Of a DNA stretch of 64,000 nucleotides, positions 1 through 39,210 are shown in pieces. The notes below the pieces were generated by a model. It was not told the origin of the DNA, did no database searches, and was given only the letters and a program-made list of their open reading frames with translations. This DNA comes from Patescibacteria group bacterium (GTDB lineage Bacteria > Patescibacteriota > JABMPQ01 > JAQVVF01). The stretch spans positions 3,074-67,073 of the forward strand of contig JAQVVF010000002.1 in the NCBI GenBank assembly GCA_028699085.1, given 5' to 3'. A program made the translations under genes and the position numbers. Every line of letters begins with the position of its first letter. Position 1 is the stretch's first letter.

Positions 1-597
1 AGAACAAGTTACTGCAACTTCTGGTAAAATATGAGTTGATAATATAATTGTTTTTTCTTTGCCTAATTCTTTAATTAAATTTCTAATTTCAATAATCTGC
101 TTTGGATCAAGGCCAATTGTTGGCTCATCCAAAATTAAAACTTTTGGATCGCCGATTAAAGCCTGCGCCAAACCAACTCTCTGTTTATAGCCTTTTGAAA
201 GACGAGAGATAATCTCATTCTTCATATGTGAAATACCACAACGCTCCATGATATTCTTGATATGCTGATTTTTCTTTTCTGGTTCGACATCTTTCAATTC
301 TGCAATATATCTTAAAAAAGAATAAACTTCCATATCTTGATATAATGGAGTATTTTCTGGCAAATAACCAATTCTTTTTCTAACTTCTACAGGATCGTTA
401 AAAACATCAAAGCCATCAATTTCTACTTTTCCAGAAGTTGGAGGAAAAAAACCAGTCAAAATTCTCATAGTTGTTGTTTTTCCAGCACCATTAGGACCTA
501 AAAAACCGATTATTTCACCTTTCTGTACTTCAAAAGAAACACCGTCAAGAGCTTTAAAATCTGCGTATGTTTTTGTAAGATTTTCTACTTTAATCAT
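1..597 (-). CDS. ABC transporter ATP-binding protein (partial, truncated by the window start)
   Basis: Reverse translation from ATG at 595-597 reads MIKVENLTKTYADFKALDGV...GPNGAGKTTTMRIL (Walker A)...LSKGYKQRVGLAQAL...LILDEPTIGLD (Walker B). It is absent from the ORF track because it runs off the window edge. Confidence 0.8.
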   Translation of the reverse strand, partial: MIKVENLTKTYADFKALDGVSFEVQKGEIIGFLGPNGAGKTTTMRILTGFFPPTSGKVEIDGFDVFNDPVEVRKRIGYLPENTPLYQDMEVYSFLRYIAELKDVEPEKKNQHIKNIMERCGISHMKNEIISRLSKGYKQRVGLAQALIGDPKVLILDEPTIGLDPKQIIEIRNLIKELGKEKTIILSTHILPEVAVTCS

Positions 598-1520: not shown

Positions 1521-2774
1521 ATGGAACAAAAAACAAAAGGATTGAAAGTTTATTCTGAAATTGGACGACTCCGTCGAGTCATGATTCATTTCCCTGGTAA
1601 CAACCATGCCTTGATGACTCCTGACAATATCAATCCTGGAAGCGAGAACTATTTGCTCTATGATGATATCGTCAATCCCAAGCGTACCAGACAGGAATTT
1701 CATACCTTTGCCGATATCTTGAGAGCTGTCGCCGAAGTCGTCACCATCGAAGATTTGATGACTGATATTTTCCGCGATCCGCAAATTCGTCTTCATGCAA
1801 TCAATATTGTTGCAAAAATTGAAGGTCTTAACCAAAATGACGCTTCAGAACTCGACTCTCTCGAAGGAGACCAGCTGACGCGTACGTTCATCATCGGCCG
1901 TTACGATGGTCAGATGAATGGCAAGAAATACTTTGAGCCTGATCCCAATTTGATTTTCACTCGCGATATTGCAGCTATTGTTGGCAATCATGCAGTTCTC
2001 TGCTATGCCAGCAAGAAAGCTCGCAATCGTGAGATGGCAATTGTCCGACTTGTTCTGAAATATCATCCGCTCTTCAGCGATCTCAAGTTGATTGACATCA
2101 ACGAAGATACTGATCAAATCGTTACCATTGAAGGCGGAGACATGGCAGTCGTTAGCGACAAAGTAGTTCTGGTTGGATGTTCCGAAAGGACTAACGAAAT
2201 TGCCATTGACCGGCTCGCCAATCGCCTTCTGCAAAATGGTTTCGAAACTGTCGCTCGAGTCAGTCTCGCTGAGGCTCGCTCGTGCATGCACTTGGATACG
2301 ATCTTCACTCGCATTTCTCACAACGAAGCAATTGTTCATGCTCCAATGGTTTTGAAAAATGGTGGCTTGAAAATCGAGTACAGATCGAAGCGTATCAAAG
2401 AATGGACTAGAGATAACAACAACTTGATTAGCTTCCTCTATGCAAACAATATCGAACTTGATCCCATCGTCTGTGGTGGACATAATGAAGTCAATCAGCT
2501 CCGCGAACAGTGGACCGATGGCGCCAACATGTTTGCACTGGCACCCGGAGTAGTCATTGGCTACAACTGCAATGACAATACTCTGCTGGAACTGGGCAAG
2601 CGAGGTTACAAAGTCATCGACGCCGACGAATTCGTCCGCAATTCCGGCTACTACATGTATCGCTACGAGCAGGCTGATTGGAAACTGGCGATTGCTCTGC
2701 CTGGCGCTGAACTCTCTCGCGGCCGCGGCGGTCCTCGCTGTATGACCTGCCCTCTCCTGCGTGATGACGTCTGA
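1521..2774 (+). CDS. arcA: Arginine deiminase (amidinotransferase superfamily)
   Basis: N-terminal VYSEIGRLRRVMIHFPG...LLYDDI, mid FTRD and MHLDTIFT motifs, and C-terminal GGPRCMTCPL catalytic-Cys motif are all characteristic of ADI. The start has an AAGGAG-like RBS. GC content is clearly higher than in neighbouring genes. Confidence 0.8.
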   Translation: MEQKTKGLKVYSEIGRLRRVMIHFPGNNHALMTPDNINPGSENYLLYDDIVNPKRTRQEFHTFADILRAVAEVVTIEDLMTDIFRDPQIRLHAINIVAKIEGLNQNDASELDSLEGDQLTRTFIIGRYDGQMNGKKYFEPDPNLIFTRDIAAIVGNHAVLCYASKKARNREMAIVRLVLKYHPLFSDLKLIDINEDTDQIVTIEGGDMAVVSDKVVLVGCSERTNEIAIDRLANRLLQNGFETVARVSLAEARSCMHLDTIFTRISHNEAIVHAPMVLKNGGLKIEYRSKRIKEWTRDNNNLISFLYANNIELDPIVCGGHNEVNQLREQWTDGANMFALAPGVVIGYNCNDNTLLELGKRGYKVIDADEFVRNSGYYMYRYEQADWKLAIALPGAELSRGRGGPRCMTCPLLRDDV

Positions 2775-2790
2775 TCTAAGGAGTCACCAA

Positions 2791-4656
2791 ATGAAAACTC
2801 AAAATCTTTTGGAATTTGTTTGTTATCAACTTCTTTTCGCTGCACAGACTACTGTCAATCCAGACTTCAGTACAGCCGAATTTTCACCAAGCAAGCTCAA
2901 GAAACCGCCCAAGCCAGAACTTGGCGATTTCGCTTTTCCTTGCTTTCAGTTGAAAGACTTCGGTGATCCCGCAGACATCGCAGTCTACATTCAAGATTTT
3001 CTGCAAACTGCTATTCCAGCCAATGATCTGATCAAGAAGGTTGAAGTCCAAGGACCTTTCGTCAACATTCATCTCAACACCGGAGTTTTGGCCCAATTGG
3101 TCTGCTCACAGATCTTGGAAGAAGGCCCAAACTACGGCACAGGTTCTGTTGGCCACGGCCAGCGCGTCATGATCGAATTCTTGGCTCCAAACAGTAACAA
3201 GCCTTTGCATCTCGGACACGTCCGGAATGCTTTGCTTGGCGCCAGCATCTCTCGAATTTTCCAAGCCATGGGCTTCGAAGTTATTCGCGCCAACTTGATC
3301 AACGATCGAGGTGCCCACATCTGCAAAAGCATCTATGCTTGGCAAACATGGGGCAATGGCGAAACTCCGCAAAGTACTGGCATCAAGGGCGACCACTTCG
3401 TTGGACGCTACTATGCCCTGTATGGAAAGAAGGAAGACGAAGCTTTTGCTGCTCTTCTCACGTCTCAAGGACTTGATCCGCAAGCTCCTTTGGATGACAA
3501 GGAAGAACGCAAAGCTGCTTTCCTGGAACAGTATCCACCAGCCTTGGCTGTCAAAGATATGCTACTGAAATGGGAAGCCAGCGATCCGAAAGTCTTAGCC
3601 CTTTGGCAGATGATGAATGGCTGGACATACGCCGGTTTTGATGCAACCCTCGCCAAACTCGGAATCGTATTCGATCGAATCTACTATGAAAGCACTACCT
3701 ACTTGCTTGGAAGACAACATGTATTGGACGGACTTAGTCGAGGCGTCTTTTACCGCAAAGAAGATGGAGCAGTTTACGCTGACCTAAAAAATGAAGGTCT
3801 TGATGACAAACTGCTTCTCCGATCAGATGGCACTTCAGTTTATATCACTCAAGATATCGGCACTGCGATTTTGAAATCAACAGACTATCAGCCTCTTGCT
3901 CGATCAGTCTATATCGTTGGCTCAGAACAAATTCACCATTTCAAAGTCCTCTTCTTGCTTCTGAAAATGCTTGACATTGAAGAAGTCAAAAATACTCTCC
4001 TCTATCATCTGCCTTATGGCATGGTCAACCTGCCTGAAGGAAAAATGAAGTCACGACTGGGCAAAATCGTTGATGCTGATGACTTGATCAGAAGCATCGT
4101 CGAACTCGCCAGAACTGAAGCTGAAGCTCTCAACGAAGGAAGGGAAGAAAAAATCACTGAAGTCGAACTTGACGAAATCGCTCGGCAAGTCGGACTTGGA
4201 GCGTTGAAATTCTTCTTCCTTGACAGCAAAGCCCTCTCGGAAATGCGCTACGACCCCAAAAAGTCAATCGCATTCAATGGCCGAACTGGACCTTTCGTCC
4301 AATATACGTATGCTAGAATTGCCAGCTTGCTACGGAAAGCTGAAGAAATCAAGGATCCAGCAAAAATTGATTTCTTGACTCTGCACGAAAGCGACGAACA
4401 TTCATTGCTCCTCGCTCTCACAGAGTTTGGAGCAGTAATTCAGGCAGCAGCAGAAAACTACGATCCATCAAAAATTTCTGCTTATCTTTTTGACCTTGCT
4501 AGAATTTTCAATCGATTCTATGCAAGCCATCGAATCTTTTCTGACGATGTGCCAAAGCAAACTCAATTAGCTCGTCTTGCACTTTGCAAATGCACTGGTG
4601 TTGTAATCAAAAAAGGCCTCGATCTCCTAGGAATCGAAGCCCCTGAAAAAATGTAA
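2791..4656 (+). CDS. argS: Arginyl-tRNA synthetase (class I)
   Basis: Start chosen at ATG 2791, which has a AAGGAG RBS at 2778-2783; the ORF track begins at 2761. HIGH-type motif PNSNKPLHLGHVRN and a C-terminal DALR anticodon-binding region (DLARIFNRFY). GC-rich like arcA. Confidence 0.9.
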   Translation: MKTQNLLEFVCYQLLFAAQTTVNPDFSTAEFSPSKLKKPPKPELGDFAFPCFQLKDFGDPADIAVYIQDFLQTAIPANDLIKKVEVQGPFVNIHLNTGVLAQLVCSQILEEGPNYGTGSVGHGQRVMIEFLAPNSNKPLHLGHVRNALLGASISRIFQAMGFEVIRANLINDRGAHICKSIYAWQTWGNGETPQSTGIKGDHFVGRYYALYGKKEDEAFAALLTSQGLDPQAPLDDKEERKAAFLEQYPPALAVKDMLLKWEASDPKVLALWQMMNGWTYAGFDATLAKLGIVFDRIYYESTTYLLGRQHVLDGLSRGVFYRKEDGAVYADLKNEGLDDKLLLRSDGTSVYITQDIGTAILKSTDYQPLARSVYIVGSEQIHHFKVLFLLLKMLDIEEVKNTLLYHLPYGMVNLPEGKMKSRLGKIVDADDLIRSIVELARTEAEALNEGREEKITEVELDEIARQVGLGALKFFFLDSKALSEMRYDPKKSIAFNGRTGPFVQYTYARIASLLRKAEEIKDPAKIDFLTLHESDEHSLLLALTEFGAVIQAAAENYDPSKISAYLFDLARIFNRFYASHRIFSDDVPKQTQLARLALCKCTGVVIKKGLDLLGIEAPEKM

Positions 4657-4712: not shown

Positions 4713-5777
4713 TTATTTCTTTTTACTACCAGTCAAAATCAAAACAATTTTCTCGCCTTTTTTAAATTTTATTTTTTTCAATGCTGGAAACACAGTTATT
4801 GCAGTTGGCTCTAAAAAAATTAATTCTTTTTCTTGAATTATTTTATCCCACTTTTTGATTTCATTATCAGTAACTTCGACAACAAAACCTTTTGTCTCTT
4901 TCAATACAAGAATTGCTTTGGGAGAACAATAACTTTCTAAAGCAACAATGCCTTCGGCAATTGAATCATTTATCTTTTTTAATTGATAATATGACTTATT
5001 TTTTTCTAACGCCTTTTTAACTGGATCAGCATTCTTTATTTGTACGCCGATTAGTTGAGGAATCTTTTCAATTTTATTATCCTTTTTCAATATTTCAAAA
5101 CCTCTGAATATACCATGGAACAAACAACCATTTCCAATTGGAATAATTATCTTGTCAGGTAGATTATTCTTAAAACTTTTATATAATTCAAAACTAATTT
5201 CCTGACTGCCTAAATCTCTAAATGAATTTTGTCCAGCAGAAAAATGATATATCTTTTTTTCATTATCAATTACATTTCTGTAAACATCTTCAAAAAATCC
5301 AGGTTTTTTAATTACCTTAGCTCCAAAAGATTTAATTAATTCTAATTTACTTTTTGAAACTTTTTTTGGCACAAAACATTTGCATTTTAATCCAGCTTTT
5401 TTTGCATAATATGCTGCTGATACAGCTGCATTACCAGAAGATATTACTCCAACTTCTTTCACTTTTTGTTCTTTAGCAACATTAATTGCTACAACAGTTT
5501 CTCGATCTTTAAATGATCCTGTTGGATTTAAATTTTCCATTTTTCCAAAAACCTCAATGTTGGGAAAATATTTTTTTAGATTATCAAATTTCTTTAGTGG
5601 CGTGTTGCCTTCTTTCAAACTTAACCATCTTTTTTTCAAGCTCTTTTTCAAAACAGAAATATCTTTAACAACTGGAGTAAAATTATCATAGTATAAATTA
5701 TCCAAACAACACTTTGGATTTTTTTTATCAAAATCAAATTTTTTACCGCACTTTAAACAAACAATTTGCAACTTCAT
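4713..5777 (-). CDS. Threonine synthase-like PLP-dependent enzyme with N-terminal Cys4 zinc ribbon
   Basis: NPTGSFKDRE and ISSGNAAVSAAYYAKKAG motifs (fold-type II PLP enzyme, ThrC hallmark), plus an N-terminal CLKCGKK...CC ribbon. AT-rich codon usage like the bulk genome. Confidence 0.65.
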   Translation of the reverse strand: MKLQIVCLKCGKKFDFDKKNPKCCLDNLYYDNFTPVVKDISVLKKSLKKRWLSLKEGNTPLKKFDNLKKYFPNIEVFGKMENLNPTGSFKDRETVVAINVAKEQKVKEVGVISSGNAAVSAAYYAKKAGLKCKCFVPKKVSKSKLELIKSFGAKVIKKPGFFEDVYRNVIDNEKKIYHFSAGQNSFRDLGSQEISFELYKSFKNNLPDKIIIPIGNGCLFHGIFRGFEILKKDNKIEKIPQLIGVQIKNADPVKKALEKNKSYYQLKKINDSIAEGIVALESYCSPKAILVLKETKGFVVEVTDNEIKKWDKIIQEKELIFLEPTAITVFPALKKIKFKKGEKIVLILTGSKKK

Positions 5778-5816
5778 ATATTAAAAAAAATAATTAATAA
5801 AAAAAAGAATGAAGAA

Positions 5817-6371
5817 TCAATCAACCAGCATCCGGAATTCTCCATTCAGCTCGAAAAGAACAACCTGCAGAGAAAAATCCGGCATTGCTTTTCGCAAAAT
5901 CGCCAAAAGATTTTTCTGCTCTGACTCATAATAATAAGGAACGATATTGATTGCTTCACCTGCAATTTCAGATTTTTTCAAACAGAGTCCAGCATCCAGC
6001 ATTACACAAGTAAACTTGCCACTCGGATATTTCAATTTGATCGTACCATTCAGTTTCCAACTTCCATCTTCTTTCTGCTTGGGACGTCTTCTTGGCGGAA
6101 GCTCCATCAACATCTGAAAAACTCTTTCTGCATCAGGAACCAGAGAAGCTTCATAAGCGATATAATCAGGGTTCGGAGCAAAATCAACAACCAAAGCATC
6201 TCTTTCCGTTTCATCCAGATCTTTTAATTCATGAAAATCATCAATAAACAACATTGTCTTATCATCCAATTGTCTCAATTGCTCCAATATTCTCCAGCCA
6301 ACTACTGACCATAACGTTGGACCCTTTGCTTGATAATAGTGTCCAGCCTCCAAGATCCTTGCTTCTTCCAT
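5817..6371 (-). CDS. Hypothetical protein (GC-rich orphan)
   Basis: Start reassigned to the internal Met (MEEARILE...) at 6369-6371, which is preceded by a GGAGGAGG RBS. The ORF-track extension to 6437 reads through an upstream terminator hairpin. No recognisable motifs. GC-richer than its neighbours. Confidence 0.5.
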   Translation of the reverse strand: MEEARILEAGHYYQAKGPTLWSVVGWRILEQLRQLDDKTMLFIDDFHELKDLDETERDALVVDFAPNPDYIAYEASLVPDAERVFQMLMELPPRRRPKQKEDGSWKLNGTIKLKYPSGKFTCVMLDAGLCLKKSEIAGEAINIVPYYYESEQKNLLAILRKAMPDFSLQVVLFELNGEFRMLVD

Positions 6372-6396
6372 TTTCCTCCTCCTCTCTATCCAAAAG

Positions 6397-6427
6397 CAAA
6401 AAAAAGATCTCGGACTTCCGAGATCTT
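6397..6427 (-). terminator. Strong rho-independent terminator (minus strand)
   Basis: Perfect 10-bp stem AGATCTCGGA/TCCGAGATCT (6405-6426) with a 2-nt loop, followed on the minus strand by T8. Confidence 0.55.
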
Positions 6428-6576
6428 TATGTATCAATTTTTCAAAAAATTAAAGATTCGGGAATCCATTTTCCATTAATTCATTTCTACGACGATTTGT
6501 AATTGCAGTAATATTTTTCATTCACTTTAAAGAATACGCTAAGTCAAAATAAGTGTCAAGTCGATTTTTATAAAAG

Positions 6577-7173
6577 TTATTCTAATTTTCCACCAGTTAT
6601 CTTATCAATATATTCCTTATTTTTCATTAGTATTTTTCCAACTCTAGGATATGCTTTGAATCGATTATAAGATATTTTGAATGGATAAATATCAGCTTTG
6701 TTTTTTTCAACATTAAAAAATGTCCGACAATCTGAATAAGCTAAAATTTTTTCTTCTATTGTTTTTGCTAAAGTATCTTTATTACCTAATCCAATTTTTT
6801 TATTCACTTCTTTTGTCTGACCAACACCGCCCATATGCCGAATACAAACTCTTGCAATTTTTTCCGGCCACTTCATTTTCTTCGCTAGTTCATAACCTCT
6901 TAGTCCATGATAAATTGCTGGCTGTAATTCCTTTGATGCTTTGCTTCCAGAAATCATTCGTCCTAAATCATGAATATAACAACCAATTTTCAAAAAATCC
7001 AAATCAATTTTGTAGCCATTTTTAATTGCTAAATTTGCAATCTTTTTAGAAAAATTCCAAACTACAGTTTCATGATCCCAAGTTTCATCGACTTGCTCTG
7101 ATATACCATTTTCTTTTGCTATTTTTTTCATTAAACTTTTGACTTGTAATAAACTAGGTAATTTTTTCAACAT
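6577..7173 (-). CDS. HD-domain phosphohydrolase
   Basis: H...HD motif (IGCYIHDLGR) and downstream RHMGGVG. The start is ambiguous: the ORF track gives 7221, but Met17 at 7173 avoids overlap with the upstream gene. Confidence 0.6.
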   Translation of the reverse strand: MLKKLPSLLQVKSLMKKIAKENGISEQVDETWDHETVVWNFSKKIANLAIKNGYKIDLDFLKIGCYIHDLGRMISGSKASKELQPAIYHGLRGYELAKKMKWPEKIARVCIRHMGGVGQTKEVNKKIGLGNKDTLAKTIEEKILAYSDCRTFFNVEKNKADIYPFKISYNRFKAYPRVGKILMKNKEYIDKITGGKLE

Positions 7174-8015
7174 ATTTTTGAATCTAAAAAAACAATGAAA
7201 ACTAGATATCCAATTATACATCCAATTGTAATTGGAGGCAATGCCGGAAAAGCTTTTTTTTCTTTCTTAAAATAAAAATAAACATTAATTGCCATAACAC
7301 CAAACAAAGCTCCAATTATTACTAAAACAGAACTTAACGAACTATCTCTCAAAACTGAAACTGCAAAAATAATTGGAAAAGCTAAATCTCCAGTTCCTAA
7401 AAACATAAAATCTTCACCTGGTTTTGCTTTATCTATTCCAGCTAAAAAACCGACTAATTTATTTGGCACAATAATCGATAAATTAGCGCCATTCTCCATC
7501 ATTTTTTTAAACATCAAAACCATATGCTTAGTTTTGAATACAGCAATAAAATCATAGACTGACAAAATAACAAGCATAATAATTATTTGCCCTGGCAAAA
7601 AAGATAATCCGATATAAGAGCTGATCCCAGAAATTGCTAATATAATTGCAATATTATGCGTTAAGACAGAAGGCATAAATCTCCGTAATAAAACTATAAT
7701 CAACGCCAAACCTAATCCTAAATATCCTAATGCAAAAACATCAAAAAATGCTAAACAACCCGAAAACAATAAAACATAAAAAAAACTAGAAAATATAATT
7801 CTACTTTTTGCATACTTAATCACTAATAGAACAACCACAGTACCGACTAAAAAGGCAATCAAAAATTGCCATAATGAATAAGATTGCTTTGCTACTAATT
7901 CTTTTACTTCTTCAACTTGAAAAAGTCGCCAACCCAAATATAAACCTAAAAACTGCGTTATTAAAAATAACAATCCTTCAAAAAACATAAAATTAAAAGA
8001 AAAATTTTTTTCCAA
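7167..8015 (-). CDS. Presenilin/signal-peptide-peptidase-like GxGD intramembrane aspartyl protease (family A22-like)
   Basis: Polytopic membrane protein carrying YD (SVYDFIAV), GxGD (FLGTGDLAFP) and PAL (AFPALPP) motifs in the canonical order and spacing. Confidence 0.5.
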   Translation of the reverse strand: MEKNFSFNFMFFEGLLFLITQFLGLYLGWRLFQVEEVKELVAKQSYSLWQFLIAFLVGTVVVLLVIKYAKSRIIFSSFFYVLLFSGCLAFFDVFALGYLGLGLALIIVLLRRFMPSVLTHNIAIILAISGISSYIGLSFLPGQIIIMLVILSVYDFIAVFKTKHMVLMFKKMMENGANLSIIVPNKLVGFLAGIDKAKPGEDFMFLGTGDLAFPIIFAVSVLRDSSLSSVLVIIGALFGVMAINVYFYFKKEKKAFPALPPITIGCIIGYLVFIVFLDSKIC

Positions 8016-8713: not shown

Positions 8714-9607
8714 TTATTCCTCTAATGCTTTTTTGGTAGCAACAGGCAAATCATCAATAACATCAGTTGCTAATACTGATCTTTCTCCTAACTTTTTACT
8801 AGCAATATCGCCTGCTAACCCATGCAAAAATACTGCAGTTGCCACTGATTCAAAAGGCAAATTAATATTTGCAGCCCAATACGCCGCTGTCATTCCTGCT
8901 AATGTATCTCCTGTTCCCGCAGTTGCCAAAGCAGGTCCGCCTGATTTATTAATAATAACTCTTTCACCATCTGAAATAACAGTCTCATATCCCTTTATCA
9001 CCAAAATGCTTTTCCATTTCTTTGCTTTTTTTCTGACTAACCATTCTCTATCTCTCTCAACATTATCAACATCTAAATCACAAAGTCTTGCCATCTCGCC
9101 AGCATGAGGCAACAAAACCGTTTTATTATCTCCCCATTCTATCAAAAGCTCAACATGACCAGAAAAAGCATTTAAGCCATCTGCATCTAAAACAACATTT
9201 TTCTGCAAATCTTTTAGCCTCTTAAATAGTTTACAAATCAGATGCCTCGTCTCTTCATGTTGCGAAAGACCTGGACCAATTAAAATTACATCATATTTTT
9301 TTGCTTCTTCTATAATTCTTTCAAAAGATGATAATGCCAAAGTCTTATCTTTTGTTTCATCACAAGGCAAAGTCAAAACTTCTGGAATCAATTTTGTATA
9401 AATATCATTCAAGCTTTTTGGAAATACTAACAAAACATAACCAGCTCCAGCTCTCATTGCTGCCTCACAACATAAAGTTGCAGCTCCAGACATTCCTTCA
9501 GATCCAGCAACAATCATCACACTGCCAACAGACTTTTTATTCGCATCTTTTGGTCTGGGAGCTAAAATTTCTGGATATAATAATTTATCTTGCTCAATTG
9601 GCTTCAT
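8714..9607 (-). CDS. nnrD: ADP/ATP-dependent (S)-NAD(P)H-hydrate dehydratase (YjeF C-terminal family)
   Basis: MIVAGSEGMSGAA...GPGLS...DADGLN...GGPALATAGTGDTLAGM, the classic carbohydrate-kinase-like fold motifs. Confidence 0.8.
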   Translation of the reverse strand: MKPIEQDKLLYPEILAPRPKDANKKSVGSVMIVAGSEGMSGAATLCCEAAMRAGAGYVLLVFPKSLNDIYTKLIPEVLTLPCDETKDKTLALSSFERIIEEAKKYDVILIGPGLSQHEETRHLICKLFKRLKDLQKNVVLDADGLNAFSGHVELLIEWGDNKTVLLPHAGEMARLCDLDVDNVERDREWLVRKKAKKWKSILVIKGYETVISDGERVIINKSGGPALATAGTGDTLAGMTAAYWAANINLPFESVATAVFLHGLAGDIASKKLGERSVLATDVIDDLPVATKKALEE

Positions 9608-9679
9608 AATATTAAATAGTTCTTCAATACTTTTTACTTTTACCTTGTAACTTTTTAATTTTTTCTTTTGACTTTTAAC

Positions 9680-10762
9680 TTAAAATCTCAACATCGCTCC
9701 AATTCCACCCATTCCCGCTAATTTTTCATTATCTTCCACAAATTCAATTTTTGCTTTATGGCTAAAAACCTTTTGAACTAATTCATCAACTACATCCTTG
9801 ACATCTTCTGTTTTGAAACTGCAATAAGGACAAACAACTTCATCAAGACCCAAAAAATCACAATTTGGACATTTCTTTCCAGTTGTACTTAATTTAGAAT
9901 CAAGCAACAAAGTTTTAACATCTCTCTCTTGTGCTGCATTCAAAACATTTTTCAAACCGGCAACAGCTAGCTGACCATTCAAACTATTATTTAATTCTTC
10001 AACAAGCATTGCCTCATTTTTTCTTTCTACTTTTTCTTGAACTTGCAATGACTGTTCTAAAAAATGTTCATTAGGCTTGAATAATTCTGTATAAAATTCA
10101 CCTACTACTCTATTTTTCAATTCTGTATGCAAAATTTTCTTTAATTCCGGCAAGATCTCTTTTGATCCAGCTAAAATCAGTCTATCAAATCCTTTTTCTT
10201 TCCAAAATTTAAAAAGCTGATCATTGATCTTTTTCAAATGACGATGCACATGCTCTTCGATATGCAAAGCCTCGCCTTGTTGTACTAATCCGCCTTGATC
10301 ATGTTTGCCAGGAAACTCATCAAAAATATAGCTAAAATCTTGAATCACACCCAAAAAGACTGTAAACAATTTTGCTTTTTCTTTATCACAAACTACAACA
10401 CAATATCTTTCTAATTCATCAAGGACTTGTAACAGTTGCTCAATATGAACATTTTTTTCAACATAAGCTCCTGTCTTAATTGGACAAGGAAATTTATAGA
10501 TTGACCAAAAATTTTTAGATGGACTAGCGTAAAATGCCATGCCTCGGATTTTTTTATCCAATCTCAAATCAATCCATTCTTCAACTTGTTTTGTTGCTTC
10601 ACTTCCCAATTTTTCTTCAACATTTTTCAATAAATCTTTTAGCTTATTTTCAATTTCTTCTGGCTTGTAACGTCTTTGATCGCAATTTAAATAAAGTGTT
10701 ACTACATCCTCTTTGTCGCTTTGTAAACGATTTAATTTTGTTATGTCTTTATTTTCTATCAT
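9680..10762 (-). CDS. eRF1/Pelota-like protein (bacterial eRF1-domain protein) with zinc-ribbon insert
   Basis: Central KHDQGGLVQQGEALHIEEHVHRH resembles the eRF1 domain-2 KHGRGGQSA...RH region, although no GGQ is present. The C-terminal AGMGGIGAMLRF matches the eRF1/Pelota domain-3 GGIAAILRY motif. A CPNC...CPYC ribbon sits in domain 3. Confidence 0.5.
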   Translation of the reverse strand: MIENKDITKLNRLQSDKEDVVTLYLNCDQRRYKPEEIENKLKDLLKNVEEKLGSEATKQVEEWIDLRLDKKIRGMAFYASPSKNFWSIYKFPCPIKTGAYVEKNVHIEQLLQVLDELERYCVVVCDKEKAKLFTVFLGVIQDFSYIFDEFPGKHDQGGLVQQGEALHIEEHVHRHLKKINDQLFKFWKEKGFDRLILAGSKEILPELKKILHTELKNRVVGEFYTELFKPNEHFLEQSLQVQEKVERKNEAMLVEELNNSLNGQLAVAGLKNVLNAAQERDVKTLLLDSKLSTTGKKCPNCDFLGLDEVVCPYCSFKTEDVKDVVDELVQKVFSHKAKIEFVEDNEKLAGMGGIGAMLRF

Positions 10763-10775
10763 ATTTTTAATTTAT

Positions 10776-10805
10776 TGTAGGGAGCAAAAATTTTTGCTCC
10801 CTACA
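10776..10805. promoter_or_regulatory. 30-bp perfect palindrome in a divergent promoter region
   Basis: TGTAGGGAGCAAAAA|TTTTTGCTCCCTACA. It lies 14 nt upstream of the eRF1-like start codon and just upstream of the plus-strand tRNA promoter. Confidence 0.5.
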
Positions 10806-10818
10806 TATTTTATCACAA

Positions 10819-10847
10819 TTTACAAAATTTTAAAAATCAAGTATAAT
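10819..10847 (+). promoter_or_regulatory. Candidate sigma70 promoter for the tRNA-Gly/Thr locus (-35 TTTACA 10819-10824, 17-nt spacer, -10 TATAAT 10842-10847)
   Basis: Near-consensus hexamers with 17-nt spacing, 30 nt upstream of tRNA-Gly. Confidence 0.45.
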
Positions 10848-10877
10848 TTCTCAAGAATAATAAATAATAATTCACGA

Positions 10878-10948
10878 GCGAGTATAGCACAGTGGTAGTG
10901 CGCTTGCTTCCCAAGCAAGATATGTGAGTTCGATTCTCATTACTCGCT
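10878..10948 (+). tRNA. tRNA-Gly (anticodon CCC)
   Basis: Acceptor GCGAGTA/TACTCGC, D-arm GCACAGTGGTAGTGC, anticodon stem CTTGC/GCAAG with loop TTCCCAA, T-arm GTGAGTTCGATTCTCAT. Confidence 0.8.
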
Positions 10949-10952
10949 ATCC

Positions 10953-10975
10953 GCCAGAGTAGCTCAGTCGGCAGA
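10953..10975 (+). pseudogene. tRNA 5' fragment (acceptor plus start of D-arm: GCCAGAG TA GCTC AGTCGG...)
   Basis: Matches the canonical tRNA 5' end but no complete D-arm follows. Its acceptor is complementary to CTCTGGC at 11128-11134. Confidence 0.35.
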
Positions 10976-10994
10976 CCTGCCCGCCAGAGCCAAA

Positions 10995-11067
10995 GCCCGT
11001 GTAGCTCAGTTGGTAGAGCAATGCTTTCGTAAAGCAGAGGTCGTCGGTTCGATCCCGACCATGGGCT
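10995..11067 (+). tRNA. tRNA-Thr (anticodon CGT)
   Basis: Acceptor GCCCGTG/CATGGGC (one G-U), D-arm GCTCAGTTGGTAGAGC, anticodon stem ATGCT/AGCAG with loop TTCGTAA, T-arm GTCGGTTCGATCCCGAC. Confidence 0.8.
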
Positions 11068-11088
11068 CTGGCTTTGGCAGGCGGGGCA

Positions 11089-11135
11089 ACACTTTCGTAA
11101 AGTGAAGGTCAAGAGTTCGATTCTCTTCTCTGGCT
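11089..11135 (+). pseudogene. tRNA 3' fragment (anticodon arm CACT-TTCGTAA-AGTG, T-arm AAGAGTTCGATTCTCTT, acceptor CTCTGGC)
   Basis: It has the same TTTCGTAAAG anticodon-loop motif as the intact tRNA-Thr. It lacks its own D-arm and 5' acceptor. A third degenerate copy (ACGTTCGTAAAGCAAAGG) lies at about 11143-11165. Confidence 0.35.
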
Positions 11136-11208
11136 AAAAAACAACGTTCGTAAAGCAAAGGTCGAAAGTAGATCCTGGAAAGTGGCTAATATTTAAAATT
11201 AAACATTC

Positions 11209-11233
11209 AAAAACCCGTCATTCGACGGGTTTT
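11209..11233. terminator. Bidirectional hairpin terminator AAAACCCGTC-ATTC-GACGGGTTTT
   Basis: Perfect stem flanked by an A-run and a T-run. It sits between the plus-strand tRNA locus and the stop of minus-strand gene 11252..13057. Confidence 0.6.
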
Positions 11234-11251
11234 AGTATGCTCAGTTTTTTC

Positions 11252-12057
11252 CTATTTCACTCCAATCGCAAAATATTGTGTCTTAATTGGATATTTTGTG
11301 AAATATTTTACAATGAATTTCTTGTCTTTCTTGATTATCTTGGCATCTGTGAATGTTGTATTAATATTCTGCCATGTGCCAGTTCCTTTTTTGTATTTTA
11401 AGAATAGATTTGCTTTTGTTGCTGATTTATTCTTTTTAAGATATTTCTTTAATTGCTTTTTAGTAAATTTGAATGATACTTTGATTTTGAATTTCTGTGA
11501 TGATTTTTTTACTTTGTATTTGTATAAATTTGTTTTCAATTTCCACTTTTTCAAGAACGTTTTGTTTGGATAACCAGTTGATTTATTCCATTTCATCCAA
11601 TATGCGCTGTTCTTTGTTAATTTGGTTGGAAGCTTTGTGAAATTGATTGTTAGACTTTGACCAGAGATTATTTCATTATTTAATTCTGATTCAAGAATAA
11701 ATTTCTGTCCTGCCCTTAATAAATCTTCGGCCTGATTATTTTCAACCTGGTTAGCTTCAATGATGTATGCTTCTGTTTTGATTTCTTCTGTATTACCAAG
11801 ACTGTCAATTGAAAAGAATTTTAAAGTTGTATCTTGAGTAATTACTATTGGATTTGAATAAACTGTTGAAGAAGTTGTTGGATCTGTGCCATCAATTGTG
11901 TAATAAGTTGCAACAACTGTTGAGTCTGCATCTGTGGCAGATAAAGTAATAGTTTGAGGAGCAGTATATGTTCCTCCAGCTAGCGAAGCTGTGGTTGTAG
12001 GAGCAAGGTAATCAATAAACCATGAAGCAATGTAATTTGCTGATATACCGCCGGCAG
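11252..12057. repeat. Dispersed repeat of about 0.8 kb, near-identical to 56644-57428 (3' module of the propeller-family genes)
   Basis: Aligned by eye: long runs of identity with scattered substitutions and one roughly 20-nt indel. Related but more diverged copies occur at 35539-35935 and 18082-18480. Confidence 0.7.
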
Positions 12058-13057
12058 TTGTAAAATCACCTCCGACATAGAGTTCGTCATTATAGACTGT
12101 TAATGCATCTACTTCATAATTCATTCCAGATCCTACTGCACTCCAAGAAAAGCCATTCCATTTCGAAATACAATTACCATAATCACCAGTAAAATCTCCA
12201 CCAGCATAAAGTTCATTATCATATACAACTAATGAATAAATATTTCCTGTAATTGTAGTGCCAACAGCACCTAAAGAATTATTATCCCAAACAGCAATAT
12301 AGTTAGAAACACCACCGCCAGCAATAGTGAATATTCCGCCAATATACAATTCATTATCGTAAACTGCTAAGGAATACACAAAACTATCAAGCTCAGTTCC
12401 ATCTCCAACTTTGCTCCAAGAACTTCCATTCCATTTCGAGATGTAATTGCCATTAACAGATGTAAATGCTCCTCCAACATAAAGTTCGTTATTATAAACA
12501 CAAAGAGAATTTACATAAGAGTTTAATTCTGTTCCAGCTCCAACTGGAGTCCATGAAGAATCATTCCATTTAACGATATAATTAGCAGGAGCACCATCAA
12601 TATTAGCATTACCACCAACATATAATTCATTATTATAGACAGCTAAGGAATAAACATTACCAGTTACTGCAGTGCCAACAGCACTTAAAGAACTGCCATC
12701 CCAAACAGCAATATAATTGGCAACACTGCCGCCAGCAATAGTAAATGTTCCGCCAATATATAGCTTGTTATTATAAACTACCATAGAAGTAGCTCGACCA
12801 TTGTTAATTCCTGTACCTGCTACTGAACTCCATGAACTGCCATTCCATTTAGCAATTCTTGAACCAGGACTAGTTGTAAAATAACCACCGACATATAGTT
12901 CATTATTGTAAACTGCAAGCGAACGTATATAGCTATCAGTTCCATCACCCAATGCACTCCAAGATGAACTTGTTCTAGCAAAAGATTGATTAACGAAACA
13001 ATAAACACCAATGACTAGAATCATAAACAACGTCATTCTTAAAAATATTTTTTTCAT
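11252..13057 (-). CDS. Secreted 7-bladed beta-propeller surface protein with lysine-rich C-terminal domain (paralog family member 1)
   Basis: Signal peptide MKKIFLRMTLFMILVIGVYCFVNQSFA, then seven repeats of about 47 aa (VYNNELYVGGxFT...NYIAKWNGSSWSxVG). An Ig-like segment follows (YTIDGTDPTTSSTVYSNPIVITQDTTLKFFSID), then a roughly 125-aa K-rich tail ending FAIGVK. Confidence 0.8.
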   Translation of the reverse strand: MKKIFLRMTLFMILVIGVYCFVNQSFARTSSSWSALGDGTDSYIRSLAVYNNELYVGGYFTTSPGSRIAKWNGSSWSSVAGTGINNGRATSMVVYNNKLYIGGTFTIAGGSVANYIAVWDGSSLSAVGTAVTGNVYSLAVYNNELYVGGNANIDGAPANYIVKWNDSSWTPVGAGTELNSYVNSLCVYNNELYVGGAFTSVNGNYISKWNGSSWSKVGDGTELDSFVYSLAVYDNELYIGGIFTIAGGGVSNYIAVWDNNSLGAVGTTITGNIYSLVVYDNELYAGGDFTGDYGNCISKWNGFSWSAVGSGMNYEVDALTVYNDELYVGGDFTTAGGISANYIASWFIDYLAPTTTASLAGGTYTAPQTITLSATDADSTVVATYYTIDGTDPTTSSTVYSNPIVITQDTTLKFFSIDSLGNTEEIKTEAYIIEANQVENNQAEDLLRAGQKFILESELNNEIISGQSLTINFTKLPTKLTKNSAYWMKWNKSTGYPNKTFLKKWKLKTNLYKYKVKKSSQKFKIKVSFKFTKKQLKKYLKKNKSATKANLFLKYKKGTGTWQNINTTFTDAKIIKKDKKFIVKYFTKYPIKTQYFAIGVK

Positions 13058-13096
13058 TTTTTGATTTTATTTTATATATTGAACCTAATTAATAAT

Positions 13097-13131
13097 ATTA
13101 TATCACATTCGAATAAAAAAAATTATCCACA
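13097..13131 (-). promoter_or_regulatory. Promoter module of paralog 1: extended -10 (minus-strand TGATATAAT, hexamer 13097-13102), A8/T8 tract, TTATCCACA box (13123-13131)
   Basis: Same architecture as the modules at 35421-35478 and 58529-58575. The -10 lies about 40 nt upstream of the ATG at 13057. Confidence 0.4.
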
Positions 13132-13173
13132 AAAGAATAATAACATAATATTATACCGACACAAATAACATTC

Positions 13174-13199
13174 AAAAACCCGCCATCCAGACGGGTTTT
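13174..13199. terminator. Hairpin terminator AAAACCCG...CGGGTTTT after the prsA-like gene
   Basis: 8-bp stem with a 9-nt loop, flanked by an A-run and a T-run. It is a sequence relative of the hairpin at 11209-11233. Confidence 0.5.
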
Positions 13200-13234
13200 A
13201 ATTTTGTTATTTAAAATTTAGTTATTTTGTTATT

Positions 13235-14293
13235 CTATTTAACAGGTTCTACTTCCACATCTTCAATTTCTACATCATCAGCTGTAGTATCAGTATTTTC
13301 TAAATTCAAACCTTCAATTGTCGCCTGTTCTTTATTCCATTTTATATCTTTAACATAAATTTTAATCTTTGCTTTTTTCTTTTGATCCAAGAACCATTTG
13401 TCAAAATCATCTTCTACTTTAAAAAAGATATGAGATGCCTTGACTTGTTCATCATCTCCAGATCCTTTTTTCTTATCAACTTTTATGATATGAAATCCTT
13501 CAATAGTTCTGACAATTTCACTCGTTTCACCAACATTTAATTTAAAAGCAGCGATTTCAAATTCTGTTTCCATTTCATCTTTGCCAATAAAACCTAGATT
13601 GCCACCATCTTTTTTAGTTGATTTATCCTGGCTAACTTCTTTTGCTAATTCTGCAAAATCTTTTCCTGCCTTCAATTTTGCCAATGCATCTTCAGCTTTC
13701 TTTTTGGCTTCTTCGCTTTTTGCCTTTCGGTCTTTATCAATTTTATCATCCATCAAATATGACTTTTGCAATTTATCATACATTAATGAAGGCTCCAAAA
13801 CTTCTTTTTTAAATTCTGAAATGCTCATATCATACAAACTTTTGATTTCTTTAGCCAATTCGTCTTCAGTATCATAATCCTCTAAAACTAGCTTGTACTC
13901 TTTTTCAATATCTTCTTTGGAAATCTTTATATTATATTTTTCTGATAATTGGCTAACTACCTTGTCCTCTATCAAACGATCTAAAGCCATCTTCTTAATA
14001 TCTAAATCACTGATTTTTTCTTCTGATTGTCCTTCTTGAGAATCATAAAAAAATTTCAAAGCTTGATAATTCTTTTCTAATTTTGACTGCATCACAAAAC
14101 TGCCATTTACTCGAGCCGAAGGTATCGGCAATGATTTAGAAATTCTTCCGCCAACATTTCCAGATAAACCAAATTTCCAAAATAAAAATCCCAAGAGAAC
14201 AACTGCCAAAATAATTCCTAGAATAATCCAAAATTTATTTTTTTTGTTTTCTTTTTTGTTTCCTAATACTGGACTTTCAAAATTTTGTTCCAT
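13235..14293 (-). CDS. Membrane-anchored PpiC/parvulin-type peptidyl-prolyl isomerase (PrsA/SurA-like foldase)
   Basis: N-terminal TM helix and a C-terminal parvulin domain (GGNLGFIGKDEMETEFEIAAFKLNVGETSEIVRTIEGFHIIKV). Confidence 0.75.
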   Translation of the reverse strand: MEQNFESPVLGNKKENKKNKFWIILGIILAVVLLGFLFWKFGLSGNVGGRISKSLPIPSARVNGSFVMQSKLEKNYQALKFFYDSQEGQSEEKISDLDIKKMALDRLIEDKVVSQLSEKYNIKISKEDIEKEYKLVLEDYDTEDELAKEIKSLYDMSISEFKKEVLEPSLMYDKLQKSYLMDDKIDKDRKAKSEEAKKKAEDALAKLKAGKDFAELAKEVSQDKSTKKDGGNLGFIGKDEMETEFEIAAFKLNVGETSEIVRTIEGFHIIKVDKKKGSGDDEQVKASHIFFKVEDDFDKWFLDQKKKAKIKIYVKDIKWNKEQATIEGLNLENTDTTADDVEIEDVEVEPVK

Positions 14294-14719: not shown

Positions 14720-14865
14720 TACGAATTTCTAATTTTAAATTACTAATTTCTATTAAATTTTCAATAAAGTAATTTCTAAACACTTAACATTATTTAATCC
14801 GTAAAGGTTTAAAAATTAAAGCATTAAGAATTTAATAAAAATTAGAAATTAGAAATTGAAAATTT

Positions 14866-29374: not shown

Positions 29375-30499
29375 TTAATTTATTTTGTAATAATTTTCTC
29401 TGCTGTCTTTAAAATTTCTATAAGAATCAAAAATATATTTTTCTATTCGATTTTTAAATAATTTTATATCAAAATCCAAAGCTCTCTTTCTTATTTCTTC
29501 TGGATTAAAATCTTTATCATTAAAATCTCTCACAGCATCAACTAAACTCCACGGAGATTGATCTTCAAATAAGATACCAGTTTTCTTAGGAATTACTGTT
29601 TCTACTGCTCCACCTTTTTTATAAGCAATAACTGGCCTTCCAGATGCCATTGCCTCCAAAGCAGTAATGCCAAAATCTTCTTCTTGAGGGTGAATAAAAG
29701 CTTTGCATCTTGAAAGATAATATGCTTTTTCTTTATCCGAAACTGGACCTAAAAATTCAATATTATCATTTGCCATTTTTTTCAAAGTTTCTAATTCTTC
29801 TCCTGTCCCGATTACCTTTAATGGCAATCTTAATGCATTAAAAGCTTCAACAACTAGATCAACTCTTTTATAAGGACGAAGTCTTGAAACAACCAAAAAA
29901 TAATCATCAATATCATTAGAAATATAATATTTACCTGTTTCAACAGGAGGATAAATAATATCGCTTTTTCTTTTATAATATTTTTCTATTCTTTCAGAAA
30001 CTGTCTTAGAATTAGCAATCATTTTGTCAACTCTTAAAGCAGCTAATTGATCCCAAGTTCTAATTTTCTGCAAAACTAAAGGCAACATTTTTTTAATAAC
30101 ACCTGGCTGCTTTATTTCTTCTGTATAACTATGCGTATCATTCCAAAGATATCTCGTTGGAGAATGAACATAGCTAATATGTAAAGTTTCCGGTCTGACA
30201 ATTACTCCTTTTGAAAATGCAGAACAATCAGACAACACAATATCATATTTAGAAAAATCAAATTGCTCAATAGCTGCTGGCATCATTGAGATATACCATT
30301 TATATTGTTTAACACCAAAAGGCAGACGTTGAATAAAAGATGTCTTTATATTTAAGTGCTTAAAAGCACCTCGAGTTTCTTTCTCATCGTATGTAATTGT
30401 ATAAACAGGAGCTCTTGGAAAAATTTCATGAAAAATTTCCAAGACTTTTTCAGCCCCACCAACTTGATTTAAAAAATCATGTACTAATGCTACTTTCAT
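29375..30499 (-). CDS. Glycosyltransferase family 4
   Basis: ITALEAMASGRPVIAYKKGGAVE motif. Confidence 0.8.
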   Translation of the reverse strand: MKVALVHDFLNQVGGAEKVLEIFHEIFPRAPVYTITYDEKETRGAFKHLNIKTSFIQRLPFGVKQYKWYISMMPAAIEQFDFSKYDIVLSDCSAFSKGVIVRPETLHISYVHSPTRYLWNDTHSYTEEIKQPGVIKKMLPLVLQKIRTWDQLAALRVDKMIANSKTVSERIEKYYKRKSDIIYPPVETGKYYISNDIDDYFLVVSRLRPYKRVDLVVEAFNALRLPLKVIGTGEELETLKKMANDNIEFLGPVSDKEKAYYLSRCKAFIHPQEEDFGITALEAMASGRPVIAYKKGGAVETVIPKKTGILFEDQSPWSLVDAVRDFNDKDFNPEEIRKRALDFDIKLFKNRIEKYIFDSYRNFKDSRENYYKIN

Positions 30500-30591
30500 A
30501 ACAAATTTAAAGTTTAAATCTCAAAATGTAAAATGACAATTTTAATTTTTTATTTGTCATTTTTCATTTTAAATTTTTCATTTTTAATTTT

Positions 30592-32106: not shown

Positions 32107-32576
32107 AACTCAAGTAAGTCAGTAAGCCAGGTTCTGTACCGCACATAAAATTTTATGTGCGGTAGTGATTATCTCTCTAGACTGTCGATCGCTCGACAGC
32201 TCAAGCCCCAGTTTATATTGGGTTGCATCAGGTAGAGTTTGCCCTATTGTTATGTCACCATAACAATCTGTGGTCTCTTAAACCACTCTTTTCACCCTTA
32301 CCTAGCACATAAATGCACTAGGCGGTATATGTCTCTGTGGTACTTGTCCTAGCTTCAAAACAACCAGTTCTCTTAAGAAGAACCGGATATTTCTTATACT
32401 TGGTTCCATTTCGGAACTACCACTTAATTCGGAAGTCGGAAATCGGAGCTTCAGAAATCGGAACGATCCGACCTCCGACATCCGATATCTGACTTCCGAA
32501 TTGATGCCCGGACTTTCCTCCCCGCACATAACTTTTGTAAATCATGCACAGAGCAATCACTCAACTTACTTGAGTT
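32107..32576 (-). ncRNA. rnpB: RNase P RNA (bacterial type, about 470 nt with an expansion segment)
   Basis: The minus strand contains GGAAAGTCCGGGC (P4 5' strand), AAGGGTGAAA (P10/11 region), ACAGAACCTGGCTTA (P4 3' strand) and a 13-bp P1 between 32564-32576 and 32107-32119. A candidate promoter is minus-strand TTGACA (32604-32609), 17 nt, TATTAT (32581-32586). Confidence 0.8.
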
Positions 32577-39073: not shown

Positions 39074-39210
39074 AATTTCTAATTATCAATTTCTAATTTC
39101 TATTAAATTTCTAATGCATTAATTATCTAATCTTGAACAAAAAAACAAGTTTTCGTTTAGAAATTAGAAATTAATAATTTAATAGAAATTAAAAATTAGA
39201 AATTAAAAAT
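39074..39210. repeat. AT-rich inverted-repeat intergenic element (TTCTAATTT / AAATTAGAA family)
   Basis: The left arm AATTTCTAATTATCAATTTCTAATTTCTATTAAATTTCTAAT is opposed by a right arm TTTAGAAATTAGAAATTAATAATTTAATAGAAATTAAAAATTAGAAATT. Its core CTAATTTCTATTAAATTT is shared with the element at 14720-14865. Confidence 0.55.

Follow-up and report, generated by a model that had tools for sequence, protein, structure and literature searches.

How does a complete tRNA gene come to lie inside another tRNA gene of the same specificity? This question is raised by a short locus in a stretch of 64,000 nucleotides (nt) of DNA from a Patescibacteria group bacterium (GenBank assembly GCA_028699085.1, contig JAQVVF010000002.1, positions 3,074 to 67,073 of the forward strand), which is referred to below as the window. 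In this locus, an intact tRNA-Thr(CGT) gene, allele B, sits with two pairing flanks between the 5' and 3' parts of a second tRNA-Thr(CGT) gene, allele A. We consider it probable that the arrangement is a nested gene replacement, in which B does the work and A is a pseudogene that was split recently. Coordinates are positions in the 64-kb window, tRNA-Thr(CGT) alleles are designated A, B, C, D, E and G, and the loci of relatives carry L numbers.

The interrupted tRNA-Thr(CGT) gene

The + strand between 10877 and 11233 reads as a single small transcription unit. The unit and the site in front of it contain the following elements.

10819..10847, + strand, promoter-like site TTTACA-17-TATAAT (11 of 12 consensus positions; putative, a consensus match only)
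10877..10949, + strand, tRNA-Gly(CCC), left border of the variable block (ARAGORN; Rfam 71.6 bits)
10953..10975, + strand, outer tRNA-Thr(CGT) allele A, positions 1-23 (from the sequence; orthologous to L001 3711..3689)
10976..10994, + strand, 5' flank of the insert, CCTGCCCGCCAGAGCCAAA, 19 nt (RNA and DNA folds, motif search)
10995..11067, + strand, inner tRNA-Thr(CGT) allele B, complete (ARAGORN; Rfam 65.1 bits)
11068..11085, + strand, 3' flank of the insert, CTGGCTTTGGCAGGCGGG, 18 nt (folds, sequence; pairs with 10976-10994)
11086..11135, + strand, outer tRNA-Thr(CGT) allele A, positions 24-73 (Rfam partial tRNA, 24.6 bits at 11077-11135; orthologous to L001)
11136..11141, + strand, A6 spacer between allele A and an older remnant (from the sequence)
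11142..11187, + strand, degenerate 3' remnant of an earlier tRNA-Thr(CGT), nearest to allele C (local alignment)
11214..11233, + strand, terminator hairpin CCCGTC ATTC GACGGG TTTT, right border of the unit (from the sequence; inverted repeat I24)

A first-pass annotation, made from the letters alone, had described an intact tRNA-Thr(CGT) between tRNA 5' and 3' fragments, and all of these elements were recovered where it had placed them (by sequence, ARAGORN and Rfam); chance does not account for them. The 5' part of A, GCCAGAG TA GCTC AGTCGGCA GA, starts three bases after tRNA-Gly and covers the acceptor 5' strand, U8 and A9, the 5' strand of the D-stem, the D-loop and two bases of the D-stem 3' strand. 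The 3' part, GC A ACACT TTCGTAA AGTGA AGGTC AAGAG TTCGATT CTCTT CTCTGGC T, supplies the rest of the D-stem, the anticodon arm, the variable loop, the T arm, the acceptor 3' strand and the discriminator. Its acceptor strand, CTCTGGC, is the perfect complement of GCCAGAG, as the annotation had also said. When 10953-10975 and 11086-11135 are joined, they form a 73-nt tRNA-Thr(CGT) with all four stems intact, which is called by ARAGORN. This program is permissive and accepts the halves joined at many junctions; the junction 10975/11086 yields the canonical 73-nt form.

The exact point of interruption is given by a relative. L001 holds the same tRNA-Thr(CGT) uninterrupted at the same place (GCCGGAG...CTTCGGCT), and the pieces of A in the window correspond to its positions 1-23 and 24-73, with no base lost or duplicated. 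Allele A is thus one gene, which a 110-nt insert (10976-11085) has broken at a single phosphodiester bond, the one that links positions 23 and 24. The two copies of A differ at seven positions, including two fully compensatory pairs, 4:69 (A-T in the window, G-C in L001) and 49:65 (likewise A-T and G-C). Since pair 4:69 spans the insert and its change is compensatory, A was evidently still evolving as a functional tRNA a short time before the insertion. This alignment with the orthologous locus was one of the checks proposed in the annotation, which had left open whether a tRNA gene was disrupted by insertion or by duplication. Insertion is borne out by it. Duplication of A was rejected, because A and B are only 75% identical and differ in every stem; their longest shared stretch is about 11 nt.

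The annotation had further counted three copies of an anticodon-loop motif. TTTCGTAAAG occurs exactly at 11025 and 11093 only in the whole 64 kb, and the third copy, at 11146, has one mismatch (GTTCGTAAAG).

B itself is an ordinary tRNA gene. It scores 65.1 bits against the Rfam tRNA model (gathering score 29; full model, 1-71), is assigned as Thr(cgt) by ARAGORN and has the cloverleaf and anticodon of a canonical bacterial tRNA gene. The insert consists of the 19-nt flank, the 73-nt B and the 18-nt flank, and therefore has 37 nt outside the tRNA. The partially inverted blocks noticed in the first pass proved to be these two flanks, which pair in register over 19 positions by 13 Watson-Crick and 2 G-U pairs with 2 mismatches, i.e., at 15 of 19 positions, or at 17 with the base before B and one bulged position included. 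The flank helix extends the acceptor stem of B by about 17 bp. With a G+C content of 68-72% (68% in the 5' flank), the flanks stand well apart from the genome (about 31%), and the 18-mer flank motif has no further copy in the window.

Folding of 10950-11140 as RNA gave -83.6 kcal/mol (z = -5.4; 0 of 200 shuffles as stable), and folding as DNA gave the same structure (z = -4.2). In the predicted fold, the helix of the insert runs through 6 bp, a 1x1 mismatch, 10 bp, a second 1x1 mismatch and 8 bp that include the acceptor stem of B, and the outer acceptor stem, anticodon arm and T arm of A are kept. The helix opens with C10976:G11085, the first and last inserted bases, and it therefore meets the outer D-stem in a three-way junction with no unpaired nucleotides. 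Two short segments of A recur in or at the flanks. CCGCCAGAG, the leader and acceptor strand of A at 10951-59, has a second copy in the 5' flank (10981-89), and CTCTGGCT, the 3' end of A at 11128-35, has a second copy at 11066-73, formed by the last bases of B and the 3' flank. An attempt to read the flanks as concentric remnants of older acceptor stems (GCCAGAG/CTCTGGC, GCCAAAG/CTTTGGC) was abandoned, as the units are parallel and not nested.

If the locus is a nested replacement, the whole unit would be transcribed from the promoter before tRNA-Gly and would end at the hairpin at 11214-11233. The paired flanks would stack on the acceptor stem of B and insulate it from the similar D-arm, anticodon-loop and T-loop sequences in the halves of A. 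RNase P, whose RNA is encoded at 32107..32572, would cut at the 5' end of B, at G10995, and 3' trimming followed by CCA addition (CCA is not encoded) would give a mature tRNA-Thr(CGU) that reads the rare codon ACG. The halves of A would be released as separate pieces, with no known route for rejoining in bacteria. A, still without disabling mutations, would then be a very young pseudogene.

A very unlikely alternative turns this scheme around and takes the insert for a tRNA-containing intron: B and its stem would be excised by RNase P, RNase Z or RNase III, and the halves of A would be ligated or would act as a non-covalent split tRNA. The halves are indeed pristine and rebuild a perfect cloverleaf, and the insert is a self-contained rod that is bounded exactly by the junction, with the outer arms still forming in the predicted fold. 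In archaeal split tRNAs, complementary leaders are used in a similar way. However, the three-way junction has no unpaired bases and no bulge-helix-bulge: the motif, two 3-nt bulges around a 4-bp helix, is absent from the predicted fold, and manually tried registers at 10970-10976 and 11080-11086 provide no 4-bp central helix (GGCA versus GGCG). The host is a bacterium, the insert is, at 110 nt, too short for a self-splicing core, and within 10600-11500 no Rfam intron family, group I and group II included, matched at E<=10, the only hits being tRNA matches and noise. Cuts by RNase P and RNase Z would also leave tails of 19 and 18 nt that need precise trimming, and displaced tRNAs at related loci decay to stumps, as expected if they are dead. 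One complete tRNA with a long intron was the case that the annotation had set against its own view. The 23 + 50 split fits such a tRNA formally, and no predictor calls it; ARAGORN reports the inner tRNA only.

Two known kinds of interrupted tRNA genes are informative here. Disruption of tRNA genes by mobile elements has been described in archaea, at the Caldiarchaeum tRNA-Thr(GGU) locus (PMC3293823). This locus and other split and permuted tRNAs share with the window a population heterogeneity of tRNA-Thr, allele fragments that adjoin another allele, and complementary flanks. The archaeal genes are rescued by the splicing endonuclease that acts on the bulge-helix-bulge, whereas at this bacterial locus, which lacks the motif, the interrupted gene is most likely dead. 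The known tRNA introns of Patescibacteria are self-splicing group I ribozymes in the anticodon loop (PMC13011429). They belong to the same phylum and likewise interrupt a tRNA gene that standard tRNA finders miss, but the anticodon loop is also where bacterial group I introns are expected, and the insert in the window lies in the D-stem, between positions 23 and 24, lacks a ribozyme core and has a tRNA inside.

Turnover of tRNA-Thr(CGT) alleles between tRNA-Gly and the terminator

The borders of the unit can be followed through relatives. The promoter-like site is conserved in L001, L002, L005 and L035, tRNA-Gly is 100% identical to that of the window in L035 and L038 and 97-99% identical in L001 and L002, and the terminator hairpin has a homologue in L001, L002 and L035. 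A terminator scanner made no call at 11214-11233, where the T run is only 4 long.

Between these borders, at least five tRNA-Thr(CGT) alleles occupy the slot among close relatives. A is found in the window and in L001, whose neighboring protein is 89% identical to that of the window. C (GCCACTT...AAGTGGCT) is present and intact in L002, L003 and L004 (neighboring protein 89%) and in L038. G (GCCGATG...CATCGGCT) is carried by L035, L036 and L039, the closest relatives, which have the same 599-aa gene; it is a mosaic with an A-like D-loop and T arm and a C-like anticodon stem. E (GCCGAAG...) occurs in L005 (neighboring protein 90%), and L007, with a neighboring protein identity of 61%, has a further distinct allele.

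The contrast with the surrounding DNA is strongest in two of these relatives. In L035, the upstream intergenic DNA is 97.3% identical to the window, tRNA-Gly 100% and the neighboring gene 94%, and tRNA-Thr(CGT) is 89% identical to A. The corresponding values in L038 are 99.1%, 100%, 91% and 78%. In both, the acceptor, anticodon and T stems differ from those of A, as does the short spacer between the Gly and Thr genes. That tRNA-Thr(CGT) is less conserved than its non-coding surroundings indicates that the gene was replaced and did not drift.

Traces of earlier replacements are left behind the present genes. The third fragment of the window, CAACG TTCGTAA AGCAA AGGTC GAAAG TAGATCC TGGAA AGTGGC T, had been seen as a third degenerate copy of an anticodon arm. 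It is present at 11142-11187 and is more than that, as it spans approximately the anticodon stem to the discriminator and includes a degenerate T arm and the acceptor 3' strand. Its local alignment scores are 50 with C, 44 with G, 36 with A and 35 with B, and the alignment to the L002 allele runs on into C's own 3' flank, TAATAT. The best score with C and the match into the 3' flank of C identify the fragment as the stump of a C-type gene. This stump is about 80% identical to C, whereas the flanks of the window are 99% identical to those of the C-bearing L038. These values imply that C was displaced by A before the two strains diverged, and the whole block (A, spacer and stump) was probably imported by recombination, as judged from these comparisons. 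L001 and L002 share another stump, D, which starts in the anticodon loop; 3' stumps thus trail the intact gene in the window, L001 and L002. The third fragment and the stumps of L001 and L002 are displaced target fragments in direct orientation, left by events older than the nested insert.

The suggestion in the first-pass annotation of a hot spot for integration or recombination gains support from the third fragment, which derives from a third allele that is intact in sister strains, and from the number of alleles at the slot. With less certainty, the slot may be described as a replacement hot spot and a graveyard of earlier alleles. Whole tRNA-Thr(CGT) alleles would be swapped between lineages at this place, and older ones would be left as 3' stumps. 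Selection to escape tRNA-targeting toxins could be an alternative cause of the turnover. The codon ACG is used 4.4 times per 1000 codons and makes up 9% of Thr codons, and because it is rare, the locus is probably tolerant of disruption.

The nested insert could also have been produced by a single event of DNA uptake and illegitimate or microhomology-mediated recombination, or by replication template switching among tRNA-Thr alleles, which would require no dedicated mobility. The mosaic structure of G, with its D-loop and T arm from A and its anticodon stem from C, points in this direction, as do the whole blocks that were apparently exchanged between lineages (a stump about 80% identical to C within flanks 99% identical to L038). 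The copies of CCGCCAGAG and CTCTGGCT in the flanks and their 6-nt periodic units (GCCAGA/GCCAAA; TCTGGC/TTTGGC) are also what slippage or template switching could give. Illegitimate joins, however, usually delete or duplicate target bases, and none were lost here. A one-off event also leaves unaccounted for a B that is 95% identical in a distant genome, with flanks that extend the acceptor stem and with a D-arm-truncated tRNA-Thr next to it (see below). We regard this explanation as quite unlikely.

Allele B in a distant genome and the origin of the insert

A metagenome scan with the acceptor pattern of B returned 26 loci, mostly ordinary tRNAs. Three of them, L019, L025 and L032, are independent assemblies of one distant Patescibacterium and have an identical 1173-nt stretch in common. 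Their tRNA-Thr(CGT) is identical to B at 69 of 73 bases and is flanked by an inverted repeat, TGTAATCTTACA-[tRNA]-TGTAAGATTACA (repeat I1), which extends the acceptor stem by 11-12 bp. The right arm of this stem abuts AGTTGGTAG (D-loop), a 13-bp hairpin and AGCA, which are followed by part of a second tRNA-Thr(CGT), whose anticodon arm, T arm and acceptor 3' strand are complete (Rfam partial tRNA, 29.3 bits). A 24-nt stretch some 110 nt beyond this remnant repeats the 3' end of B itself (92% identical). Near-identical B genes are therefore found in two distant genomes, in both cases with a stem and against a D-arm breakpoint of a resident isoacceptor gene. Among the 93 tRNAs in all the DNA analyzed, a leader-trailer stem of more than 6 bp occurs only in B alleles.

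The L032 host has a G+C content of about 39%, and DivIC and LepA are found to that side of the tRNA where the window has them too. At approximately 5650-7500, in the interval from the tRNA-Thr remnants to DivIC, L032 has three orphan genes (229, 213 and 105 aa) within a 2-kb stretch whose G+C content is 50-56%. The variable genes beside tRNA-Thr in L032 and L007 had no recombinase, phage or defense match in Pfam, PHROGs and PADLOC.

Scans of viral contigs with the acceptor pattern of B and with its anticodon/T-arm gave no match, and a looser pattern, D-arm plus anticodon, matched nothing but ordinary phage tRNA arrays, in L042 and L043. L043, a viral contig with 14 tRNA genes, contains a B-like tRNA-Thr(CGT) at 158-231 (reverse-complement coordinates). 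Its D-arm and anticodon arm are identical to those of B, its T arm is similar and its acceptor stem is different, which indicates that phages carry B-like alleles.

Several observations weigh against the nested replacement as we propose it. The nesting was seen in one assembly only, and the closest relatives, L035 and L038, lack the insert. Exact-protein look-ups found no independent assembly of this locus; one 1.6-kb contig ends short of it, and the contig reached through P0042 does not include the tRNA. The insert and the DNA beside it contain no recombinase, transposase or integrase, and the neighbors are conserved housekeeping-type genes and one variable surface-protein gene. The joined halves of A equal the uninterrupted orthologue base for base, with no target-site duplication at GGCAGA|...|GCAACA. 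The stem of the L032-type B is unrelated in sequence to the flanks in the window, which would be unexpected for a transposon with defined ends. In addition, no 5' fragment of the displaced tRNA is visible in L032, which is therefore not a clean second nesting. The copies of CCGCCAGAG (leader and acceptor strand of A) and CTCTGGCT (its 3' end) in the flanks have no explanation in the proposal. Finally, a processed, charged B and a dead A are both inferences.

GGCAG, which occurs at 10970-74 and 11076-80, was considered as a target-site duplication and discarded, as its second copy is followed by GCGGG and not by A.

That the nesting comes from a single metagenome-assembled genome also raises the question of an assembly or amplification artefact, such as a false join between strain variants or a chimera of inverted repeats. 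Related populations harbor several tRNA-Thr alleles side by side, and no second assembly of the exact locus was found. Against this, the longest sequence shared by A and B (about 11 nt) is far below the k-mers used by assemblers, the G+C-rich flanks occur in no other allele, and A is split exactly to the base. The flanks are moreover imperfect complements (2 G-U pairs, 2 mismatches), unlike those of amplification chimeras, and three independent assemblies of another organism contain a comparable B that is flanked by a stem. We therefore hold an artefact to be extremely improbable.

With regard to how B arrived within a nested replacement, the segment would most likely have come either as a small cassette flanked by a hairpin or as what was left of a larger integrating element, and it would have spread or persisted by supplying the function that it destroys. 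No mechanism among a cassette, a remnant of an integrative element and illegitimate recombination is favored by a wide margin.

The first of these can be stated in a stronger form, which we offer only tentatively: B and its acceptor-extending stem may be a mobile, selfish tRNA cassette that moves between Patescibacteria and lands in the D-arm of the resident isoacceptor gene. Such a cassette would use the resident promoter and replace the function it destroyed, and the host could not easily lose it. Its stem would either be recognized as a DNA or RNA structure or keep the tRNA from misfolding with the host halves, and the rapid turnover of alleles at the slot would be its footprint. A self-contained cassette fits the precision with which the segment was inserted, its recurrence in L032 and the horizontal distribution of B; the lack of conserved flanks, of a target duplication and of a known enzyme speak against it. 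Miniature inverted-repeat transposable elements (MITEs) and palindromic insertion elements are the nearest comparison, being small and non-coding with imperfect terminal inverted repeats, to which the 19- and 18-nt flanks correspond. The insert differs from them in several respects: it made no target duplication, its flank motif is single in the 64-kb window, the repeats of its two instances are unrelated to each other, and its cargo is a tRNA with an extended acceptor stem.

The second, an origin from a larger integrative element, we consider unlikely. Here, a tyrosine-integrase island or prophage with a D-arm attachment site would have carried its own tRNA-Thr by attP and later lost its body by deletion. 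As described in the Islander work, tRNA genes are classical attachment sites, and displaced fragments mark island ends. Islands sit in the anticodon loop, the T-loop, the 3' end or, rarely, the D-loop, a sublocation reported for some integrases (bioRxiv 10.1101/2020.11.02.365908). The D-arm breakpoint of the window resembles this rare D-loop sublocation, and the locus has further features of island and prophage sites in these accounts: a tRNA gene as target, stacked 3' fragments and variable neighboring genes. Stumps that begin in the anticodon loop, a classical crossover site, trail the intact gene in L001, L002 and the window; the 2-kb stretch beside tRNA-Thr in L032 has a foreign composition (50-56% versus about 39% G+C); and a 601-aa surface-protein gene is variably present beside the tRNA among relatives. 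In contrast to tRNA-gene islands, the insert is 110 bp long, which leaves no room for a gene, and has brought a whole different tRNA, and both target halves remain in place. The first pass had suggested looking for integrase or phage remnants nearby on the full contig; no integrase was found near the locus in the window or in the island of L032. The target was not regenerated (the 5' part of A is joined to the flank), as it usually is by attP segments borne with an integrase, and no direct repeat brackets 10976-11085. A deletion that left exactly a palindromic stem and a tRNA, with all target bases intact, would be a remarkable coincidence.

Tycheposons are reportedly kilobase elements with recombinases and cargo that leave arrays of partial tRNAs at hypervariable islands. 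They are similar in that one tRNA gene is reused in a streamlined genome and partial tRNAs pile up at a hypervariable island. In the window, however, only a bare tRNA and a stem are present, and what varies is the tRNA allele itself. In the literature searched, no case was described in which one bacterial tRNA gene lies within another, which is not proof of absence.

Genomic neighborhood and significance

The neighboring genes encode proteins identical to MDD3887362-69, which come from a metagenome-assembled Patescibacteria group bacterium, and a Logan contig from SRR22315503 likewise encodes identical neighboring proteins. The host is bacterial by its class A RNase P RNA and its bacterial proteins. 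Three features outside the tRNA unit are relevant here.

9680-10762, - strand, baeRF/Vms1-Ankzf1-like gene (peptidyl-tRNA hydrolase family), divergent to the tRNA unit
11252-13057, - strand, 601-aa surface protein with chitobiase C-terminal and Fn3-associated domains, which also matches a phage protein family of unknown function
32107..32572, - strand, RNase P RNA, bacterial class A (Rfam RF00010, 187 bits)

The baeRF/Vms1-Ankzf1-like gene adjoins the unit of tRNA-Gly and tRNA-Thr divergently in all relatives (L001-L008, L035-L039), and both tRNAs of the unit, tRNA-Gly(CCC) and tRNA-Thr(CGT), read rare codons (GGG, 3.0, and ACG, 4.4 per 1000). The surface-protein gene lies between the tRNA-Thr terminator and a SurA-like gene; it is present in L002, L035 and L041 and absent from L001 and L007. 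Beyond these two neighbors follow genes for the SurA-like isomerase, DivIC and LepA, and the synteny around the tRNA unit is common to relatives without the insert. A megablast search of 9000-14000 against a phage database gave no match, and a scan of a genome collection with a neighboring protein returned one relative only.

Other structures were seen next to the same tRNA genes in relatives. L001 (about 3795-3900, - strand) and L005 (about 113-215, - strand) contain a hairpin, CCCCGTACMAAGTTTCTG ... CAGAAACTTKGTACGGGG, with an 18-bp stem that shows a compensatory change between the two genomes, and an unrelated 60-nt interior. The hairpin stops precisely at G1 of tRNA-Gly, and the window, L002 and L035 do not have it. 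Its interior in L001 contains AAAGCCCGTAGCTC, which resembles the start of B, and gave no tRNA-like signal with Rfam. In L007, a 162-aa orphan gene (2259-2747, - strand in locus coordinates) is located between tRNA-Gly and tRNA-Thr. In L009 (-), L016 (-), L024 (+) and partly L015, which belong to unrelated bacteria, a conserved, G+C-rich, structured stretch of about 120 nt lies just 3' of an ordinary tRNA-Thr(CGT), and in L009, L016 and L024 it is followed by a perfect direct repeat, about 30 nt long, of tRNA positions 43-73. No Rfam family matches the stretch in these three loci. It resembles a small element that has integrated into tRNA-Thr(CGT), or an RNA that ends in a tRNA-like 3' half.

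Elsewhere in the window, five tRNA-Arg genes with all five anticodons (CCG, CCT, TCG, TCT and GCG) stand in a row at 785-1296, directly followed by genes for arginine deiminase and arginyl-tRNA synthetase (1521-4656). This arginine-themed cluster has a G+C content of 47%, compared with about 31% in the rest of the window, and may have been acquired. Many intergenic regions, typically between divergent genes, contain long A+T-rich inverted repeats, often with TTTCTAA-like units (e.g., 54403-54544, 14724-14864, 39063-39214, 30497-30596 and 10776-10805). At 10776-10805, the hairpin is conserved in relatives and the sequence is not.

Annotation pipelines report the inner tRNA only and miss the split gene around B. 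tRNA genes are normally among the most conserved genes, and large mobile elements are known to use them as passive landing pads. At this locus, the tRNA itself is exchanged, and in one genome a complete new allele can still be seen within its predecessor. If the arrangement is recurrent, it would represent a minimal form of gene replacement, in which a tRNA invades its own isoacceptor gene. It would then explain some of the "missing" or duplicated tRNAs and the tRNA fragments in Patescibacteria annotations, and would provide a testable case of tRNA allele turnover in bacteria.

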